Shown one piece after another: positions 7,559 to 12,509 of a DNA stretch of 12,509 nt. The DNA comes from a virus (Duplodnaviria > Heunggongvirae > Uroviricota > Caudoviricetes): the IMG/VR virus record IMGVR_UViG_2609460344_000006, positions 1-12,509 of that record; one strand, written 5' to 3'. A model generated the notes under the pieces. That model saw only the letters and a program-made list of their open reading frames with translations, had not been told where the DNA came from and searched no databases. How positions within the stretch are numbered: the first letter of the stretch is position 1; the number at the start of each line of letters is the position of its first letter. The position numbers and the translations under genes were made by a program.

Positions 7559-8052
7559 CCCGGAAGCCCGGGGATTGTGATCTGCAACTGGTTAGCCAGG
7601 GAGTTAATCTCAGCGATCAAACCAGGTTTCGTGTAGCGCCATGCCGCAAGGACTTGCCCGCAGAAGCTCGCCATATCTTTTTTCTGATCAAACTCATGAC
7701 ACTTCATATTGAGCTGCGCACTTAAGCTGTTGCGATGCTGAAGTTCTCCGGTGAAGTAGTCATCCAGGACTTTATAGGCTGCATATTTAAATCCGGGGTT
7801 TAGCCATGTTGCATAATCATAAGCAACAAACTTCCCGCCATATGTTCCACCGTGTACACCGCGCTCAGTAAAAACCACAGATTCGTGGTTTTTCTCCAGC
7901 TCGGCTAAGAACTCTTTGGTCTGCTTGTTTCGCAGGTAGTGGTACGGAGATTCAGATTCACTTTTACCACTGGCTTTCCACATATCAGTGAGGCAGATCA
8001 TGCCATCTTCAGCGACACGGATTGGCTGATTGAAGAGGGTTAATGATTTCAT
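7498..8052 (-). CDS. KilA-N domain DNA-binding protein (Roi/antirepressor-like)
   Basis: From ATG 8052 the sequence MKSLTLFNQPIRVAEDGMICLTDMWKASGK...YLRNKQTKEFLAEL...GGTYGGKFVAYDYATWLNPGFKYAAYKVLDDYF is typical of KilA-N. I reject the upstream 23 codons of the track ORF. The tail PGLPGCVIVSLNAPPERGATSQRS looks out of frame. Confidence 0.85.
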   Translation of the reverse strand: MKSLTLFNQPIRVAEDGMICLTDMWKASGKSESESPYHYLRNKQTKEFLAELEKNHESVVFTERGVHGGTYGGKFVAYDYATWLNPGFKYAAYKVLDDYFTGELQHRNSLSAQLNMKCHEFDQKKDMASFCGQVLAAWRYTKPGLIAEINSLANQLQITIPGLPGCVIVSLNAPPERGATSQRS

Positions 8053-8202
8053 GTCGTATACCTGTTCTTTGAAATGAACCTTTGCCGCATAGGAAACCAG
8101 CCCACCGAGGCTCGCCAGCACTAACGGGTATCCTCAAAGGCCCATTCCAAAGGGTCAGGTTCGGTGGTTATTGTGCGCTGCGGTGCGCGGTGAAATATCT
8201 GT

Positions 8203-8228
8203 ACAAAAATGCCCCGCATCTGCGAGGC
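8203..8228 (-). terminator. Intrinsic terminator after the 83-aa gene
   Basis: Minus-strand RNA reads GCCUCGC-AGAU-GCGGGGC followed by AUUUUUGU. The U-G wobble works only on the minus strand. It is a near-copy of the terminator at 9888-9913. Confidence 0.7.
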
Positions 8229-8251
8229 TTTTAGCATGTGGAAAAGGTAGT

Positions 8252-8503
8252 TTATCGTCGCTCTTCAAGATAAGGATCTATGTTGCTAACTTTTTTGTAC
8301 TTCGGATCCTGCGGTAGTCGAACGGCGGGATCATATACAAGCCATATAGATTCAGACTTGCCATCTGAACCATCTGTGTTTTTACATGAGCGTAACTTGT
8401 AATGAATGATTCTATCTACGTCAGCGTACTCGGAGGTTGCATAAACTTCATATTTATTATCTCCGTGGCAAAGAATAGTTTTAACTAATTTTGTAGATGA
8501 CAT
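8252..8503 (-). CDS. Hypothetical 83-aa protein in AT-rich DNA
   Basis: ATG 8503 with AAGGAG 5 nt upstream. MSSTKLVKTILCHGDNKYEVYATSEYADVDRIIHYKLRSCKNTDGSDGKSESIWLVYDPAVRLPQDPKYKKVSNIDPYLEERR. No family recognised. It has its own terminator. Confidence 0.7.
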   Translation of the reverse strand: MSSTKLVKTILCHGDNKYEVYATSEYADVDRIIHYKLRSCKNTDGSDGKSESIWLVYDPAVRLPQDPKYKKVSNIDPYLEERR

Positions 8504-8589
8504 GTCTGCTCCTTTGTAATTGATGGGTATGACATATGACCACCAATAACAGTGCCATATTTCTGGTGATTATTGCAGCAACGAAATTA

Positions 8590-8620
8590 CAAGCCCACCC
8601 GTAGATGGGCTTTGTAATGG
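8590..8620. repeat. Right copy of the 31-bp hairpin-containing direct repeat
   Basis: caagcccaccCgtagatgggctttgtaatgg. It lies 30 nt downstream of the stop of the 67-aa gene. Confidence 0.9.
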
Positions 8621-8650
8621 AGAGTCGTTGTGAAAGTGGCTCTCAGACTG

Positions 8651-8854
8651 TCATTTTTTCCCTTTCTGTTTACCTGCCCACTGTTTTGCAATGTACAGGC
8701 AGTCATCGAAAATTCGGCCTTTTCTGCTGGCTTGTGAACAACGACGATAATGCTCTACGGCCATATCGGCACCCATTAAGGCGACATTGGGATCATATCC
8801 CTGTTTCACTAGGACGCTTTTCACATTACAGTGGATGAATTGGATCGGGTTCAT
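8651..8854 (-). CDS. Hypothetical 67-aa basic protein translationally coupled to the Bro-N gene
   Basis: The ATG at 8854 overlaps the Bro-N stop (ATGA at 8851-8854). MNPIQFIHCNVKSVLVKQGYDPNVALMGADMAVEHYRRCSQASRKGRIFDDCLYIAKQWAGKQKGKK. No family recognised. Confidence 0.7.
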   Translation of the reverse strand: MNPIQFIHCNVKSVLVKQGYDPNVALMGADMAVEHYRRCSQASRKGRIFDDCLYIAKQWAGKQKGKK

Positions 8855-9423
8855 GCCGACTCTCCATCAGGAAAGTCTCCTAGATCAGGAATTGATAATT
8901 GGGTCAATTGCAAGGCAATCTCTGTAGCTTTCTTGATCAATTTAATGTCACGCTTACGCTGTGCCATCAAACCACTACCTTTTTTCCCGCGATATTTGAG
9001 AGACTTTTTGTCAAACACATCTATCGCATCAAGCATTTTTTGCCCCGCAAGCTGCGGCAATGTCTCTAGATTCAAATGCCCAACCTCAACACCAGACTCT
9101 CTTTCGGCCAAATCAAGAAGCCAGATACGAAGCTCTTTAGCTATCTTGGTTCGCGACATCATGCCAATAAGGTGCGCCCCTCGAGGAGAAAACAATCGAA
9201 CCTGAGTGTAATCTATCATGCTGTTTTTATTACACTTCCTCACTTTGGTCACAATTGTCATGCTATCTGTAAACTCATCTTTATGACGATTGTAGATATT
9301 GGAAACCTTATTTGAATTCGCATAACCAAGCAGATCTGCCAATGCCTCAGCGGTAAACCAAATCTTCCCATCACCATTATCAAATGGAATCACGGTATTG
9401 TTTTTGAACGTCAGTTCGTTCAT
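8851..9423 (-). CDS. Bro-N domain protein (prophage antirepressor-like), 190 aa
   Basis: The true start is probably ATG 9423, with AGGAG 8 nt upstream. MNELTFKNNTVIPFDNGDGKIWFTAEALADLLGYANSNKVSNIYNRHKDEF...RLFSPRGAHLIGMMSRTKIAKELRIWLLD fits the Bro-N pattern. The basic C-terminal ~75 aa are unassigned. Confidence 0.85.
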   Translation of the reverse strand: MNELTFKNNTVIPFDNGDGKIWFTAEALADLLGYANSNKVSNIYNRHKDEFTDSMTIVTKVRKCNKNSMIDYTQVRLFSPRGAHLIGMMSRTKIAKELRIWLLDLAERESGVEVGHLNLETLPQLAGQKMLDAIDVFDKKSLKYRGKKGSGLMAQRKRDIKLIKKATEIALQLTQLSIPDLGDFPDGESA

Positions 9424-9560
9424 TGAGCGTACTCCTATAGAAATGAGCCTCGTTGCCCAGAAACGCCGCCCGCAGAGAGGTCGCCACCTATAACGACGGT
9501 TCTCCAAGGCTCATTTCTGTAAGGCTCTGCGATTTACATGCGCCGGGCATGGCGCAGATA

Positions 9561-9593
9561 TAAAAAAACCACCAACGCGGTAAGCGCCAGTGG
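9561..9593 (-). terminator. Intrinsic terminator in the spacer between Rz and the Bro-N gene
   Basis: Minus-strand RNA reads CCACUGGCGC-UUACC-GCGUUGGUGG (10 bp, three of them G-U pairs) followed by UUUUUUUAUAU. The wobble pairs make it specific to the minus strand. Confidence 0.6.
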
Positions 9594-9594
9594 C

Positions 9595-9681
9595 TTATTG
9601 ATACAGCCTCAAATTAATTGCCAGCACCGAGGTACCCACCCACAGAAGTTTCCCCTCGTTTTGGGGTGAGCTAGTCAACAT
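9595..9681 (-). CDS. Candidate 28-aa small protein (MLTSSPQNEGKLLWVGTSVLAINLRLYQ)
   Basis: Found by reading the sequence; it is below the ORF-track size cutoff. GGGGAG lies 5 nt before the ATG, and the stop TAA directly abuts the terminator stem at 9593. The Shine-Dalgarno sequence is the 3' arm of the hairpin CUCCCC-AAAACU-GGGGAG. Confidence 0.35.
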   Translation of the reverse strand: MLTSSPQNEGKLLWVGTSVLAINLRLYQ

Positions 9682-9887
9682 TTGCACTCCCCAGTTTTGG
9701 GGAGCTCAAACGTTCAACGATGATGCTGCAGATGCGTTCATACCGGCTTTACCTTTTAGTGATGAACCTTGTCACACAGGATTCCGGCCCACAGAAAGGC
9801 ACCGATCACCAAACCGGCATCCTCAAGGGTCATCCTGAAAGGTTCTGTGTTAATAAGTCGCGCGTGTGAAGCGCATTTACTGAGGAC

Positions 9888-9913
9888 ATAAAAAAGCCCC
9901 GCTTCTGCGAGGC
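9888..9913 (-). terminator. Intrinsic terminator downstream of Rz/Rz1
   Basis: Minus-strand RNA reads GCCUCGC-AGAA-GCGGGGC followed by UUUUUUAU, about 45 nt after the Rz stop. Confidence 0.7.
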
Positions 9914-9955
9914 ATTTTCCTGAAAGTCACTTGTTAAATTTCAGTGAAGTTAAAA

Positions 9956-10399
9956 TTATTTTAAGCACTGAGTCCTGATGTACTCCTGCAGGTAGTTAAC
10001 CTGCGCGGTTATCTTGTCGATTCCACTTCGGAGACGGTAATAATTGAGTTCAGCATCTGCTGTAAGTCTTGGGCTTTCTCCATCGCCCATGCTGCTGGCT
10101 CCGGTAGTTGACTTTGCACAGGTGGCGGCGACTTGCAGGCGCTTACGCCCAGCAGAAACATCAGCACGGAGACTTTCAATAGTCGCGTTAGCATCAGCAA
10201 GCTCCTTTGTGTATCTGGTGTCAAGTTCTGCTACATCACGTTGCCGCTTCTGCATATCAGCGATGATGGATGTGGCTTTATCGCGCTGCGCTTTGTAGGT
10301 AATCGCGTTATCACGGTAATGGTCTGTTGCCATCCACAGCGCACCACAGGCCACCAGCAGAATAACGATAAACGCGGAAAGCATTCGGTTTATGTTCAC
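9956..10399 (-). CDS. Rz: i-spanin Rz
   Basis: It has an N-terminal TMD (SAFIVILLVACGALW) and then HYRDNAITYKAQRDK...MQKRQRDVAELDTRYTKELADA...RLQV, which closely resembles lambda Rz. The GTG at 10399 overlaps the upstream stop (GTGA). ATG 10384 is an alternative start. Confidence 0.9.
   Translation of the reverse strand: MNINRMLSAFIVILLVACGALWMATDHYRDNAITYKAQRDKATSIIADMQKRQRDVAELDTRYTKELADANATIESLRADVSAGRKRLQVAATCAKSTTGASSMGDGESPRLTADAELNYYRLRSGIDKITAQVNYLQEYIRTQCLK
10009..10194 (-). CDS. Rz1: o-spanin Rz1 lipoprotein, embedded in the +1 frame of Rz
   Basis: MLTRLLKVSVLMFLLGVSACKSPPPVQSQLPEPAAWAM... has a lipobox-like LGVSAC and a proline-rich mature part, and lies wholly inside Rz. This is the classic embedded spanin architecture. 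Confidence 0.8.
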   Translation of the reverse strand: MLTRLLKVSVLMFLLGVSACKSPPPVQSQLPEPAAWAMEKAQDLQQMLNSIITVSEVESTR

Positions 10400-10527
10400 C
10401 CCAGCAACCCCGACGAAGACAACATCATCCAGGCCATGGAAAGAAAAAGAGCAACCAGCATTAGTGAAAATGAAATGCCGACAATTACACAGAGGATCTT
10501 CGCCAGCGTTATGAGTTTGTCTGACAT
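10396..10527 (-). CDS. 43-aa single-TMD membrane peptide between the endolysin and Rz
   Basis: ATG 10527 is preceded by GGGAGGA 6 nt upstream. MSDKLITLAKILCVIVGISFSLMLVALFLSMAWMMLSSSGLLG. Its stop overlaps the Rz GTG. I reject the N-terminal 30 codons of the track ORF. Confidence 0.6.
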   Translation of the reverse strand: MSDKLITLAKILCVIVGISFSLMLVALFLSMAWMMLSSSGLLG

Positions 10528-10541
10528 GCTTAATCCTCCCT

Positions 10542-10724
10542 TCACGATTTCAACGCAATGACCAGTTTTGCCAGCCCATACAGCATCGGGGACACAGCAA
10601 CACCGACCGCCACCCACTTAATGGCAAAAGCCAGTGCTCTGCTGATGTCATCAGTTACAGGCGCTTTCAGTTCAAGGCCATTTTTCATAGTCAACCTCAA
10701 CAGAATTCGTTTATACTTCGCCAT
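10542..10724 (-). CDS. 60-aa protein with a basic N-terminus and a C-terminal TMD, between the endolysin and Rz
   Basis: ATG 10724 is preceded by GGGAGA. MAKYKRILLRLTMKNGLELKAPVTDDISRALAFAIKWVAVGVAVSPMLYGLAKLVIALKS. There is a 14-nt gap, carrying a strong Shine-Dalgarno sequence, before the next gene. Confidence 0.55.
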   Translation of the reverse strand: MAKYKRILLRLTMKNGLELKAPVTDDISRALAFAIKWVAVGVAVSPMLYGLAKLVIALKS

Positions 10725-10757
10725 GTTCTCCCTTGCCTTACTCAAGGTCAGAAACAC

Positions 10758-10800
10758 AAAACCCCGCTTGGTGCCAACAAACGGGGTTTTTACTTTTATT
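10758..10800. terminator. Bidirectional terminator-like hairpin between the endolysin and the small membrane genes
   Basis: AAAACCCCG-N15-CGGGGTTTT. The plus strand continues TTTTTACTTTTATT and the minus strand continues UUUUGUGUUUCUG. Confidence 0.6.
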
Positions 10801-10880
10801 CACTTACGTTTCGCCAGTTCGCAGGATTTCGTGTTATCCGCCCGCGTGGCCATACCTTATTTTTCAGCAAAATATTCTGC

Positions 10881-11414
10881 TTATCTGTCGATTCCCCAGC
10901 ACGCCAGCGCGCTCTCCTGGTCACGACGGGATACCTGACCATAACAGTTATTTGAGCGGATACGGCAGTCTCTGCCACCGTCCTTAATCCACCAGCGAAT
11001 CGCCTCACACGCTCCCCTGCGATCACCTGCATTAATTCGTTTATAAAACGTCGACGGGAAACACTTACCGGGACCAATGTTGTACGGACAGAATGACGCG
11101 ATCCCCGCTTTCTGGGGTTCACTCAATGGCACTCTGATGTTTTTCTCCACCCATGCCAGCGCCTTATCACGCTCAATGGCGTTAACCCGGTCGCATTTTT
11201 CCTTCGACAACTTCATGCCCGGAACGACAGGTTTGCCATCCACCAGGATGGCACCGCGGCAGATGGTCCAGATACCCGCGCCATCACGGTATGCCGTGGT
11301 GTGGTTACCTTCCTTTTCATCCAGAAACTGGTCGAGGATTTCAGGCGCAGGCGCACCTGCGGCAATCAGCGCCAGAACGGCAGCCGACAGGCCGTATTTG
11401 ATTTTGGTGTTCAT
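10881..11414 (-). CDS. rrrQ: SAR endolysin, T4-lysozyme family (RrrQ-like, 177 aa)
   Basis: It has an Ala/Gly-rich N-terminal signal-arrest-release segment (YGLSAAVLALIAAGAPAP). The catalytic E-8-D-5-T spacing is present in EGNHTTAYRDGAGIWT. The sequence is close to what I recall of the Qin prophage RrrQ. Confidence 0.95.
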   Translation of the reverse strand: MNTKIKYGLSAAVLALIAAGAPAPEILDQFLDEKEGNHTTAYRDGAGIWTICRGAILVDGKPVVPGMKLSKEKCDRVNAIERDKALAWVEKNIRVPLSEPQKAGIASFCPYNIGPGKCFPSTFYKRINAGDRRGACEAIRWWIKDGGRDCRIRSNNCYGQVSRRDQESALACWGIDR

Positions 11415-11464
11415 GGATATTTATCAGGGTTTATCGATTTCAAATCCCTGGATATGTTAAGTCT

Positions 11465-11809
11465 TCAGGCCAGCGGTGGAGTCTTCAGAGAACCAGTAAT
11501 TATTCCCGGTAGTTTTCCTCTGTAGGTTATCAACACATCCTGCGCCTCTAAAATTACGGGGCGCTTTTCCGGCAACGGACCATCCCCTTCACATAACCCG
11601 GCAGCAACATCCATGAAAAACTGCTTCGCCTGCTTTTTCGCCTCAGCTTCGTAAAACTCCAGCGTGGCATCTTCAGTACGGTCAAGACTAATCGCCACAT
11701 CTGGCAACAACAGTGACGGATACCCACCAATTTCCAGTGCCACAGTAACAGTAATCTTATTCGGGTAATTATTTATCCCTTTAACAACCAGTTCGTATTT
11801 TTTCTTCAT
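11465..11809 (-). CDS. ydfR: DUF1327 (YdfR-like) protein inserted between the holin and the endolysin
   Basis: 114 aa, MKKKYELVVKGINNYPNKITVTVALEIGGYP... The start lies 4 nt after the holin stop, with GGGGAGAG upstream. It occupies the same position as ydfR in the Qin order essQ-ydfR-rrrQ, as I recall it. Confidence 0.8.
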   Translation of the reverse strand: MKKKYELVVKGINNYPNKITVTVALEIGGYPSLLLPDVAISLDRTEDATLEFYEAEAKKQAKQFFMDVAAGLCEGDGPLPEKRPVILEAQDVLITYRGKLPGIITGSLKTPPLA

Positions 11810-11813
11810 CGCT

Positions 11814-12029
11814 TTACTCTCCCCGCGCCGCCTTACGACGGTCCTCTCTGATTTTGAAATACAGGTTAGTCAGATATGTCAGCAGCCCAAACAGCAGACT
11901 CCCCAGTACGCCTATTGCCGCCCACTGAGACGGGGAAACCCTGTCCAGCAACTGCAGGAACCAGTAGCCCGTTCCCACCGCTGACGTGGTGTATGACACA
12001 CCTGTTGTGATTTTTTCCATCTGGTACAT
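11814..12029 (-). CDS. essQ: Class II pinholin, S21/EssQ-like (71 aa, dual start at Met1/Met4)
   Basis: [71 protein letters not shown] is near-identical in pattern to phage 21 S. It has two TMDs, the first rich in Gly/Ser/Thr, and a basic C-terminus. Confidence 0.95.
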
Positions 12030-12104
12030 ACCCCGTCTCCCGCAATCCGGAAGCTCACAACAACAAGTGGGGCATCAGCTCACACCGACACCCCCTGCGC
12101 ATGG

Positions 12105-12374
12105 TTACATCATCATTTCGCCGTCAGGCTGAGGCTCACTGCTACCATCAGGCTGAGACCCGACGCCATCTGAAACAGCACTGTCATCCGCAATGCCTTC
12201 CGGCTCCGGAACAGTCGGTGCGCCCAGCAGTTCATCCAGAATGGCATCCACTTCTGCATCAAGACGCGCCTCAAGGTTCTGCCGAAGTTGCTGTTTCAGT
12301 GCGCTTCTGACTTCTTCAGAGCGCAGGACTTCCTTCACTGCTTCAGCAGTGACCAGCGATTTTATTTCTGACAT
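12105..12374 (-). CDS. Small acidic hypothetical protein upstream of the holin (89 aa)
   Basis: The likely start is ATG 12374 (MSEIKSLVTAEAVKEVLRSEEVRSALKQQLRQNLEARLDAEVDAILDELL...), and the tail is acidic and Pro/Gly/Ser-rich. I recall similar ORFs upstream of S in E. coli lambdoid prophages. The Shine-Dalgarno sequence is weak (GAGAAA). Confidence 0.7.
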   Translation of the reverse strand: MSEIKSLVTAEAVKEVLRSEEVRSALKQQLRQNLEARLDAEVDAILDELLGAPTVPEPEGIADDSAVSDGVGSQPDGSSEPQPDGEMMM

Positions 12375-12509
12375 GGTATTTTCTCGTTGAAAGGTGTTGT
12401 TAAGAAAGTTGCTACGGAATGAGAGGCTCTTCGGGTTTTGTTCCGGCTGACTGACTGGCACTGATTTTCTCAGCGGCCCTTTTGTCAATCTGTCTGCGCC
12501 AGAAATCTC

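Follow-up and report, generated by a model that had tools for sequence, protein, structure and literature searches.

A portable leader RNA cassette behind late-operon terminators of a lambdoid prophage, with covarying structure and a predicted paired Shine-Dalgarno sequence

Introduction

In the sar-ant system of phage P22 and the c4-icd-ant system of phage P1, the antirepressor is held down post-transcriptionally by RNA pairing at the ribosome-binding site. Here we describe a structured leader RNA that precedes antirepressor-like genes in a 12,509-nt stretch of caudoviricete DNA (IMG/VR record IMGVR_UViG_2609460344_000006, positions 1 to 12,509; hereafter the window), for which an initial annotation had pointed to two similar intrinsic terminators. 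The window matches, at 100% identity, a lambdoid, Shiga toxin (Stx)-phage-like prophage of Escherichia coli strain cM8a. For IsrK, the small RNA of the Gifsy-1 orf45-anrP locus, the summary in PMC13397905 (after Hershko-Shalev 2016) describes a promoter of its own and an action in trans on the long form of the transcript. The sections of the same report devoted to P22F (Noncoding RNA 2026;12:21, PMC13397905) introduce an 89-nt RNA of P22-infected Salmonella with 'no known function', which was detected in infected cells and vesicles only, was validated by reverse transcription PCR, stops, at its 3′ end, 6 nt short of the rha start codon and is described as maintained in other phages; an IsrK-like role was suggested by the authors.

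Two concepts of phage genome organization also bear on this locus. In the classic sense, a moron is preceded by its own promoter and followed by a terminator (Juhala et al. 2000, as cited in PMC4104026). Short conserved boundary, or linker, sequences were proposed for lambdoid mosaicism (Susskind & Botstein; Clark et al. 2001; both through PMC3029335), and the part of the latter source dealing with them states that such sequences are undetectable at most mosaic junctions.

Results and discussion

Three diverged copies of a terminator-linked cassette

The segments 8205–8232 and 9890–9917 form a 28-nt direct repeat with 25/28 identical positions (89%), whose consensus AAAAANGCCCCGCNTCTGCGAGGCNTTT matches just those two sites in the window and none in 200 dinucleotide-preserving shuffles, confirming that the terminators T_A and T_B (Table 1) share about 27 bp with three differences, as initially annotated. 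The similarity runs ~135 nt further downstream on the minus strand, yielding one local alignment of about 160 nt with a score of 53, compared with 17.6 ± 2.3 and a maximum of 27 in shuffles. The resulting cassette of ~170–190 nt shows a constant order on the minus strand, comprising an intrinsic terminator, a GC hairpin (HP2), a rod of ~97 nt and a start codon ~9 nt past the Shine-Dalgarno (SD) sequence. A third, diverged cassette (C), reaching from terminator T_C up to the leader of a BRO-N gene, aligns full-length with alleles A and B, so that the window holds three copies.

A single larger duplicated segment had been named beforehand as the finding that would overturn the initial annotation. 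Such a segment exists in form, with similarity extending to about 165 nt, but a recent duplication within the prophage is hardly credible: the identity between copies A and B is 67% for the rod and 48% for the linker, whereas each copy is ~96% identical to copies in other genomes, their flanks are unrelated, and each of the two alleles is widespread independently of the other. Copies A and B represent diverged alleles, and the three window rods are mutually 65–68% identical. A mobile repeat of the MITE/ERIC type was ruled out by the fixed orientation of the element and its fixed spacing to the downstream start codon.

For comparative analysis, a pattern scan of IMG/VR provided 120 loci, falling into alleles A and B, and a second scan added 120 loci of allele C.

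The rod covaries as an RNA and is predicted to pair the Shine-Dalgarno sequence

All alleles share the rod, which consists of the helices P0, P1/P2, P3 and P4 and an apical hairpin with a GGCG loop. In P0, CCUUU pairs with the AAAGG of the SD sequence, whereas P3 occurs as AGGA:UCCU or AGAA:UUCU and P4 as CCGGUU:GGCCGG, CCAGUU:GGCUGG or GCCGUU:GGCGGC. A plain MAFFT alignment of 26 sequences has 87.3% pairing cells versus 73.6 ± 0.9 in shuffled alignments and 34–52% with slid partners, and shows double-sided changes in 19/31 pairs versus 3–9 when slid. The model-fitted alignment of 44 distinct sequences yielded 89.7% pairing cells, double-sided changes in 25/31 pairs (5–10 when slid) and a covariation score of 0.458 (≤0.101 when slid), with the SD-containing helix P0 covarying in 5/6 pairs. 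The covariation evidence sits in columns outside those fixed by the patterns used to fetch the loci.

Two U·G pairs are near-invariant, being present in 38/44 and 42/44 sequences of the model-fitted alignment and in 26/26 at both positions of the MAFFT alignment. The covariance model R1, built from the 26-sequence MAFFT alignment, recovered exactly three window copies with 74–84 bits, all on the minus strand; on the opposite strand it scored ≤9 bits for A and B and had no match for C. The near-invariant U·G pairs and the strand asymmetry together indicate an RNA on the strand of the late operon. Single-sequence folding of rod A reproduced the covariance-model rod, with helices P0–P4, the apical loop, and P0 pairing ACCUUU with the AAAGGU of the SD sequence; in rod B of the window, an A-to-C change breaks one P4 pair. 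R1 also picks up further diverged alleles among the fetched loci. A fourth window match (6788–6884, minus strand, 13.4 bits, E = 0.08), which lies directly upstream of the HNH gene and overlaps a ynfO-like coding sequence (CDS) on the other strand, was treated as noise.

In 115 unique leaders, the SD sequence is predicted to be paired with a median probability of 0.99 and a mean of 0.91, compared with a shuffled-leader mean of 0.61, whereas the AUG is predicted to be paired with a probability of 0.29, leaving the start codon mostly open. From this folding model we infer that the base of the rod would hide the ribosome-binding site of the next gene. Gene starts are nearly always found 19–21 nt past the conserved core (124 type-A/B occurrences sampled). 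Among the E. coli genome matches listed, PGAP annotation usually shows at the element either no feature or an N-terminally extended Rha CDS, and in P22 (NC_002371.2) the rod occupies 1239–1335, with the RefSeq start (GTG) of the rha/ORF201 CDS at 1276, inside the rod. The database GTG starts of rha/ORF201-type genes are probably too far upstream, the ATG ~9 nt past the SD sequence being more likely. The window open reading frame (ORF) 7498–8121 likewise has its GTG start within the rod.

The same stretch of allele A can be read as an open frame of 25 codons for a small hydrophobic leader peptide or toxin (MTLEDAGLVIGAFLWAGILCDKVHH, 9833–9756), and some third-position variation is in line with coding. 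A peptide is nevertheless very improbable, as the frame has 3 codons in allele B, is interrupted by TGA in copies of the 933W type and read through elsewhere, lacks a usable SD spacing (AGGAUG) and is traversed by inter-allele indels that are not multiples of three; its ATG and the partner CAT are, moreover, accounted for as a helix pair.

A loop-bulge interaction joins HP2 to the rod

The stem of HP2 covaries (GCGC/GCGC, AUGCGU/ACGCAU, UGCGCC/GGCGCA, GUGC/GCAC), and its loop is complementary to a 6–7-nt bulge located between P3 and P2 in the 3′ strand of the rod, with both changing together. In total, 12 different complementary loop/bulge pairs were found, three of them in the window (Table 1) and the others being UCUCAC/GUGAGA, UCGUAC/GUACGA, UAGCAC/GUGCUA, UCGCA/UGCGA, UCGCAC/GUGCGA, CGCAC/GUGCG, ACGCCC/GGGCGU, UUCGCG/CGCGAA and UUCUCG/CGAGAA. 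Since MAFFT cannot register loops and bulges of differing length, the interaction was evaluated by a permutation test. At least five consecutive Watson-Crick pairs between loop and bulge were present in 133/140 unique contexts; among distinct loop/bulge combinations, 16/20 reached this number, versus 37/360 cross-pairings (Fisher p = 7e-12) and 3.2% of shuffled loops. An Edwardsiella copy retains the interaction via a G·U wobble. This covariation implies a pseudoknot and indicates that HP2 and the rod constitute one folded RNA domain of ~140 nt.

In a few cassettes of IMG/VR and Klebsiella phages the HP2 loop mismatches the rod bulge, for example where a D-type HP2 is joined to a 933W-type rod. 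Judging from their sequences, these look like inter-allele recombinants with a breakpoint between HP2 and rod, and they would provide natural 'mutants' for the pseudoknot. A K-turn reading of the rod bulge was dropped after inspection as a poor fit.

P22F belongs to the cassette family

The P22F sequence is allele B. Window rod B is identical to it at 78/80 positions and lies at the same place, directly upstream of a rha/KilA-type gene, and P22 itself scores 88.4 bits with R1; rods A and C, at 65–68% identity, are joined to the P22F family by covariation. The passages on P22F in PMC13397905 contain no mention of a fold, SD pairing, an HP2 pseudoknot or a linked terminator. The present analysis adds the diverged alleles A and C and the presence of several copies in a single prophage. 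A T_A-like stem is found after Rz in P22, ES18 and mEpX1, with the same GCCUCGC...GCGGGGC stem, a U tract and the same post-spanin position; the mEpX1 and ES18 records annotate this hairpin alone as a terminator, not the structured leader behind it.

The Rfam search (cmscan of the whole window, both strands, E ≤ 1) gave 0 matches among 4,227 families, including IsrK, c4, AgvB, AsxR, STnc100 and Sok. The cassette thus resembles IsrK, as far as that system is summarised in PMC13397905, in its arrangement, being a structured RNA before an antirepressor operon with a terminator that would give short and read-through forms and with translation that would be gated by RNA structure, but differs from it in sequence and structure. 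With sar-ant and c4-icd-ant it would share RNA pairing at the ribosome-binding site; in the cassette, however, this predicted pairing is intramolecular (P0), and neither an antisense promoter nor a structure on the antisense strand found support, the opposite strand scoring ≤9 bits with R1.

Could the domain act as a sensor or riboregulator, be it riboswitch-like, a protein-binding site, or a dual-function RNA acting in trans, as has been proposed for IsrK upstream of the Gifsy-1 antirepressor operon? The covarying loop-bulge pseudoknot, the conserved unpaired apical GGCG loop and the conserved bulge flanks would suit such a role, as would the accumulation of P22F as a discrete RNA, for which the P22F sections of PMC13397905 themselves raise the IsrK parallel; in addition, the leader does not depend on the identity of the downstream protein, pointing to a common external effector. 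We regard this as unlikely, given that no ligand, protein or target was identified, that IsrK, c4 and all other Rfam families gave no match and that constitutive SD masking fits the data equally well.

Alternatively, the rod could mainly be a processing and stability element for RNase III or RNase E that cuts the late transcript into units, the terminator hairpin guarding the upstream 3′ end and HP2 the downstream 5′ end, as is known from the RNase III sites of T7 and from the N-leader and sib sites of lambda. The rod is indeed a ~25-bp imperfect duplex of the kind that RNase III cleaves, and the 5′ end of P22F given in its published description falls within the basal stem, suggestive of processing. 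The ends described there do not, however, form the 2-nt-staggered pair expected from RNase III, and processing leaves the pseudoknot and the SD pairing unexplained, making this a decidedly unlikely main function.

Properties of the terminators

T_A, T_B and T_C are predicted intrinsic terminators, each with a GC-rich stem, a 3′ U tract and a co-oriented stop codon just upstream. T_A (9913–9896) and T_B (8228–8211) have 7-bp stems with 6 G-C pairs each and 4-nt loops. The calculated folding energies on the minus and plus strands, respectively, were −15.8 and −10.4 kcal/mol for T_A, −14.5 and −9.6 kcal/mol for T_B, and −17.9 and −9.1 kcal/mol for T_C. The central U·G pair of T_A and T_B turns into a C·A mismatch on the plus strand, leaving the minus-strand form ~5 kcal/mol more stable, in agreement with the strand specificity that the initial annotation had attributed to this pair. 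Their plus-strand forms still fold, with short T runs, and from such models weak bidirectional activity is conceivable. A sar-like antisense RNA ending at a bidirectional terminator was rejected on account of the plus-strand tail, which in most phages is not U-rich, the C·A mismatch and the low opposite-strand model score; a sib-like extension of the terminator stem by its flanks was not conserved on inspection.

The six stem-loops previously counted on this strand all exist, yet three of them differ from T_A, T_B and T_C. The two 31-nt repeats (7270–7300 and 8590–8620), which are 97% identical, lack a U tract and are for that reason not canonical terminators, and the 13-bp hairpin at 10758–10790 looks, from its folding energies, like a bidirectional terminator. 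An unusually high terminator density received mild support, with 19 terminator-like sites in the window versus 12.8 ± 3.5 in shuffles and the four strongest minus-strand sites clustering at 8.2–10.8 kb.

Across the family, a perfect-stem terminator lies 27–50 nt upstream of the rod in 155/175 unique contexts, and several of the other 20 show, by eye from the listing, a terminator with one mismatch. The GCCUCGC/GCGGGGC stem is found in about 75% of the cassettes, across all three leader alleles, and the remaining cassettes carry at least eight unrelated terminator stems; in one sub-allele, HP2 itself is followed by U6–8, resulting in tandem terminators. The varied stems at a fixed place suggest that selection appears to favour the presence of a terminator and not only its sequence.

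These observations bear on the view taken in the initial annotation, in which free-standing paralogous terminators insulate modules for independent expression or silencing in the lysogen and the 27-bp terminator serves as the recombination site. T_A and T_B are canonical, minus-strand-specific and located at module junctions, as had been stated, and the stem common to most cassettes of all three alleles would fit as well. As a whole, however, this view is improbable, because the homology continues for ~135 nt past the terminator with structure-preserving covariation, because the leader rod is the unit conserved between unrelated flanks, and because leaders of the same allele also stand behind unrelated terminator stems. 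That modules would stay silent until Q-modified polymerase reads through is plausible. Independent module expression, in particular, received no support: a crude sigma-70 consensus scan found no promoter-like site between any window terminator and the next start codon, and the alignments inspected contained no conserved promoter, LexA box or integration host factor (IHF) site between terminator and rod.

Cargo genes and mosaic flanks

The cassette is found upstream of antirepressor-type genes in many phages, for example in the R-ant interval of 933W-like Stx phages and behind Rz in P22-like Salmonella phages. The downstream genes of the A/B loci form seven unrelated clusters with Rha, KilA-N, P22_AR_N, ORF11CD3 or P63C domains; Ant and BRO-N are further cargo across Enterobacterales phages, and some copies precede HNH/AP2-like and TerB-like genes, recognised by eye from their translations. 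With leader rods clustered at ≥90% identity as the unit of analysis, each leader cluster is joined to 9–22 unrelated upstream and 8–20 unrelated downstream sequence clusters, and the same downstream gene cluster recurs behind alleles A, B and C. The 31-nt hairpin-repeat element is present in 151 phage records and, among the matches listed (15 rows), mostly lies at or just past the 3′ end of a Rha-type or hypothetical gene. With the cassette on the 5′ side and this hairpin on the 3′ side, the modules have conserved sequence at both ends. The earlier proposal of recombination at shared elements is supported by these mosaic flanks, the shared unit being the ~170–190-nt cassette plus the 3′ hairpin and not the 27-bp terminator.

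The cassettes fit the conserved boundary sequence of mosaic phages, with the same sequence between unrelated DNA on both sides, and are an unusually clear case of what had been proposed for such genomes. As in the linker concept, a conserved non-coding sequence separates unrelated modules; in contrast to it, the present boundary is a long folded element on which selection has evidently acted at the RNA level, so that recombination may be a by-product. Likewise, the modules resemble morons in being hairpin-flanked accessory genes among conserved late genes, at the variable sites Rz-terminase and R-Rz, but here the terminator lies upstream, the 3′ hairpins are devoid of a U tract and the sigma-70 scan showed no promoter.

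Of 5,426 complete E. coli genomes, 946 contain allele B and 806 contain allele A, individual genomes having as many as 8 copies. Leaders homologous to allele C were found upstream of hkbK in HK620 and of rha in HK639, and in phages of Klebsiella, Providencia, Edwardsiella, Enterobacter and Citrobacter; by genus, allele C extends to Pantoea, Rahnella, Rouxiella, Proteus, Providencia, Symbiopectobacterium, Edwardsiella, Enterobacter and Escherichia, and cassettes overall also to Klebsiella and Salmonella. Cassette C of the window together with the preceding 180 nt occurs only in this strain among the complete E. coli genomes, whereas T_C together with the C2 rod, the same terminator and rod type, recurs in a prophage of Edwardsiella ictaluri, which suggests an imported module in the slot behind cassette A. 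Exact type-C cores were also seen on contigs of GTDB metagenome-assembled genomes labelled Thermodesulfobacteriota, Lachnospiraceae and Collinsella, most likely mis-binned enterobacterial phage contigs.

A proposed combined restraint on transcription and translation

The terminators are the 5′ edges of portable cassette alleles, and we consider it fairly probable that in these the terminator limits transcription and the leader restrains translation of swappable modules. For ordinary RNA polymerase, the terminator would end the preceding unit, here the lysis genes, and the mostly antirepressor-like genes behind it (Rha, KilA-N, Ant, BRO-N) would be transcribed essentially only by Q-antiterminated polymerase, the roles of terminator and Q being deduced from how intrinsic terminators and Q-modified polymerase are known to behave. 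On the read-through transcript, the leader would fold and keep the SD sequence closed, and translation of potentially harmful proteins would stay low or become conditional on some opening event. The compact fold might be sufficiently stable for a discrete small RNA to build up, as P22F does in P22. The 5′ cassette and the 3′ hairpin, common to unrelated modules, could in turn serve as homology anchors for accessory-gene swaps among lambdoid phages.

Several points weigh against this combined restraint. For this strain, we infer termination, Q read-through and SD occlusion. The loci were fetched by patterns taken from the conserved blocks, so that the sampling is biased and conservation of those blocks is circular. 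The crude sigma-70 scan can overlook weak or non-sigma-70 promoters. The window copies look partly decayed, cassette A having lost its gene, cassette B showing one disrupted P4 pair and a frameshift in its gene, and a further frameshift affecting the portal gene, making function in this particular prophage doubtful; the cassette family is clearly under selection. The published account places the P22F 5′ end at the P0/P1 border inside the rod, without HP2, indicating either that the accumulating RNA is a product of processing or that its ends were called imprecisely, and this RNA may have its own role. Finally, the pseudoknot, the conserved bulge and the apical GGCG loop exceed what simple SD masking calls for and hint at a ligand, a protein or an RNase partner.

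It is accordingly possible, though doubtful, that HP2 and the rod represent a previously unclassified pseudoknotted regulatory RNA of a riboswitch-like, protein-sensing or dual-function type. If so, this domain would decide on the synthesis of antirepressor-type proteins in lambdoid and Stx prophages once late transcription has passed the terminator, with an influence on prophage cross-talk and induction, and the alleles, of which an O157-type genome can carry up to 8 copies, could form a trans-acting network.

Terminators alone would be ordinary; behind these lies a covarying RNA domain that has no Rfam family and of which some allele is carried by about one complete E. coli genome in six. 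The cassette precedes antirepressor-like genes of Stx-type and P22-type phages, and such genes can affect induction and phage-host conflict. P22F, until now an orphan RNA, is thereby given a fold and a family, along with a role that can be tested.

Genomic context in the window

The late operon lies on the minus strand, with the antiterminator Q gene ~6 kb upstream, beyond the window; this position and the gene order, from holin and YdfR through lysozyme to Rz (Table 1), agree with the initial placement of the terminators inside the Q-dependent late operon of a lambdoid prophage. To the left of Rz follow a 2.7-kb accessory region and then a convergent ynfO-like gene, HNH, the terminase small and large subunits and a capsid gene. 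The portal gene, like the KilA-N gene, is marked as frameshifted by PGAP, and with these two frameshifts the prophage is probably defective. The region 10396–10790 between lysozyme and Rz corresponds to the R-Rz slot that holds terminator, rod and ant in 933W-type phages.

Table 1 Features of the cassettes and their surroundings in the window
Feature	Position	Strand	Description
Holin gene	11814–12029	minus	rightmost of the late-gene order given, then YdfR
Lysozyme gene	10881–11414	minus	after YdfR in the late operon
13-bp hairpin	10758–10790	both	−18.9 kcal/mol minus, −15.7 kcal/mol plus; between lysozyme and two small ORFs
Two small inserted ORFs	10542–10724 and 10396–10527		between lysozyme and Rz, behind the hairpin 10758–10790
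Rz gene	9956–10384	minus	
T_A	9888–9913	minus	42 nt past the Rz stop; GCCUCGC-AGAA-GCGGGGC then UUUUUUAU
HP2_A	9860–9874	minus	GCGC-UUCACAC-GCGC; loop UCACAC complementary to rod A bulge GUGUGA
Rod A (allele A)	9749–9847	minus	83.6 bits (7 bits on the opposite strand); fold −35.9 kcal/mol
Remnant ORF	9706–9741	minus	what is left of the former cassette A gene; 11 codons (MNASAASSLNV*)
Cassette C	9596–9430	minus	diverged third cassette, T_C up to the BRO-N leader; BRO-N start 9423
T_C	9559–9596	minus	initially annotated as hairpin 9561–9593; 13-bp stem 9596–9566, U7 tail UUUUUUUAUA; after the remnant ORF
HP2_C	9539–9556	minus	UGCGCC-AUGCCC-GGCGCA; loop UGCCC complementary to rod C bulge GGGCA
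Rod C (allele C2)	9430–9529	minus	leader of the BRO-N gene; 74.5 bits with R1
BRO-N domain gene	8851–9423	minus	cargo of cassette C; Pfam Bro-N E = 6.5e-8; PGAP annotation
67-codon ORF	8651–8854	minus	co-oriented, overlaps the end of the BRO-N gene
Hairpin of module C	8590–8620	minus	3′ boundary; AAGCCCAUC-UACG-GGUGGGCUU; −19.1 kcal/mol, z = −6.0
83-codon ORF	8252–8503	minus	terminated by T_B (predicted)
T_B	8203–8228	minus	23 nt past the stop of the 83-codon ORF; GCCUCGC-AGAU-GCGGGGC then AUUUUUGU
HP2_B	8175–8188	minus	GCGC-ACCGCA-GCGC; loop CCGCA complementary to rod B bulge UGCGG (also P22)
Rod B (allele B)	8062–8158	minus	78.1 bits with R1
KilA-N + ORF11CD3 gene	7301–8052	minus	cargo of cassette B; frameshifted (7498–8052 and 7301–7558)
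Hairpin of module B	7270–7300	minus	3′ boundary; −25.3 kcal/mol, z = −6.6; abuts the stop codon

Behind cassette A, the first codons of the remnant ORF resemble genes behind C2-type rods elsewhere, and by this comparison the body of the gene that cassette A originally preceded is deleted or replaced. The ORF overlapping the end of the BRO-N gene had no Pfam match. Between the remnant ORF and T_C, the region 9597–9748 (minus strand), and especially 9650–9702, contains two similar small hairpins, CUCCCCAAAACUGGGGAG and CACCCCAAAACGAGGGGAA. At megablast sensitivity, the ~180-nt stretch around this region had no counterpart in other complete E. coli genomes, and its first ~180 nt had no match in the phage collection.

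Known small RNAs (sRNAs) of related prophages map elsewhere. AgvB, AsxR and the Pas sRNAs are located near PR′ or in the structural operon and not at cassettes. Of the Hfq-CRAC peaks in O157 Sakai, the strong peaks EcOnc10 and EcOnc11 (Sp10 and Sp12) map to the 3′ end of a convergent ynfO/ylcI-like gene after Rz, EcOnc12 probably lies at the same place, by homologous spacing only, and EcOnc22, with EcOnc23/24 as its listed homologues, maps to tail genes. None of the placed peaks (EcOnc10, EcOnc11, EcOnc22) maps to the rod, an absence that says little, as the Hfq-CRAC study (Tree 2014) excluded peaks <100 bp from a CDS. The window homologue of the ynfO-like gene lies at 6808–7008 (region 6808–7060, plus strand) and may likewise have an sRNA derived from its 3′ untranslated region.

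Between terS and the HNH gene, the 16-mer AGCCAGTTAACATTTT is repeated at 6219–6234 and 6288–6310 in direct and inverted copies, with a weaker copy at 9669–9684 in the accessory region. This repeat may be a terminase or cos-related binding site, for which it is a candidate.

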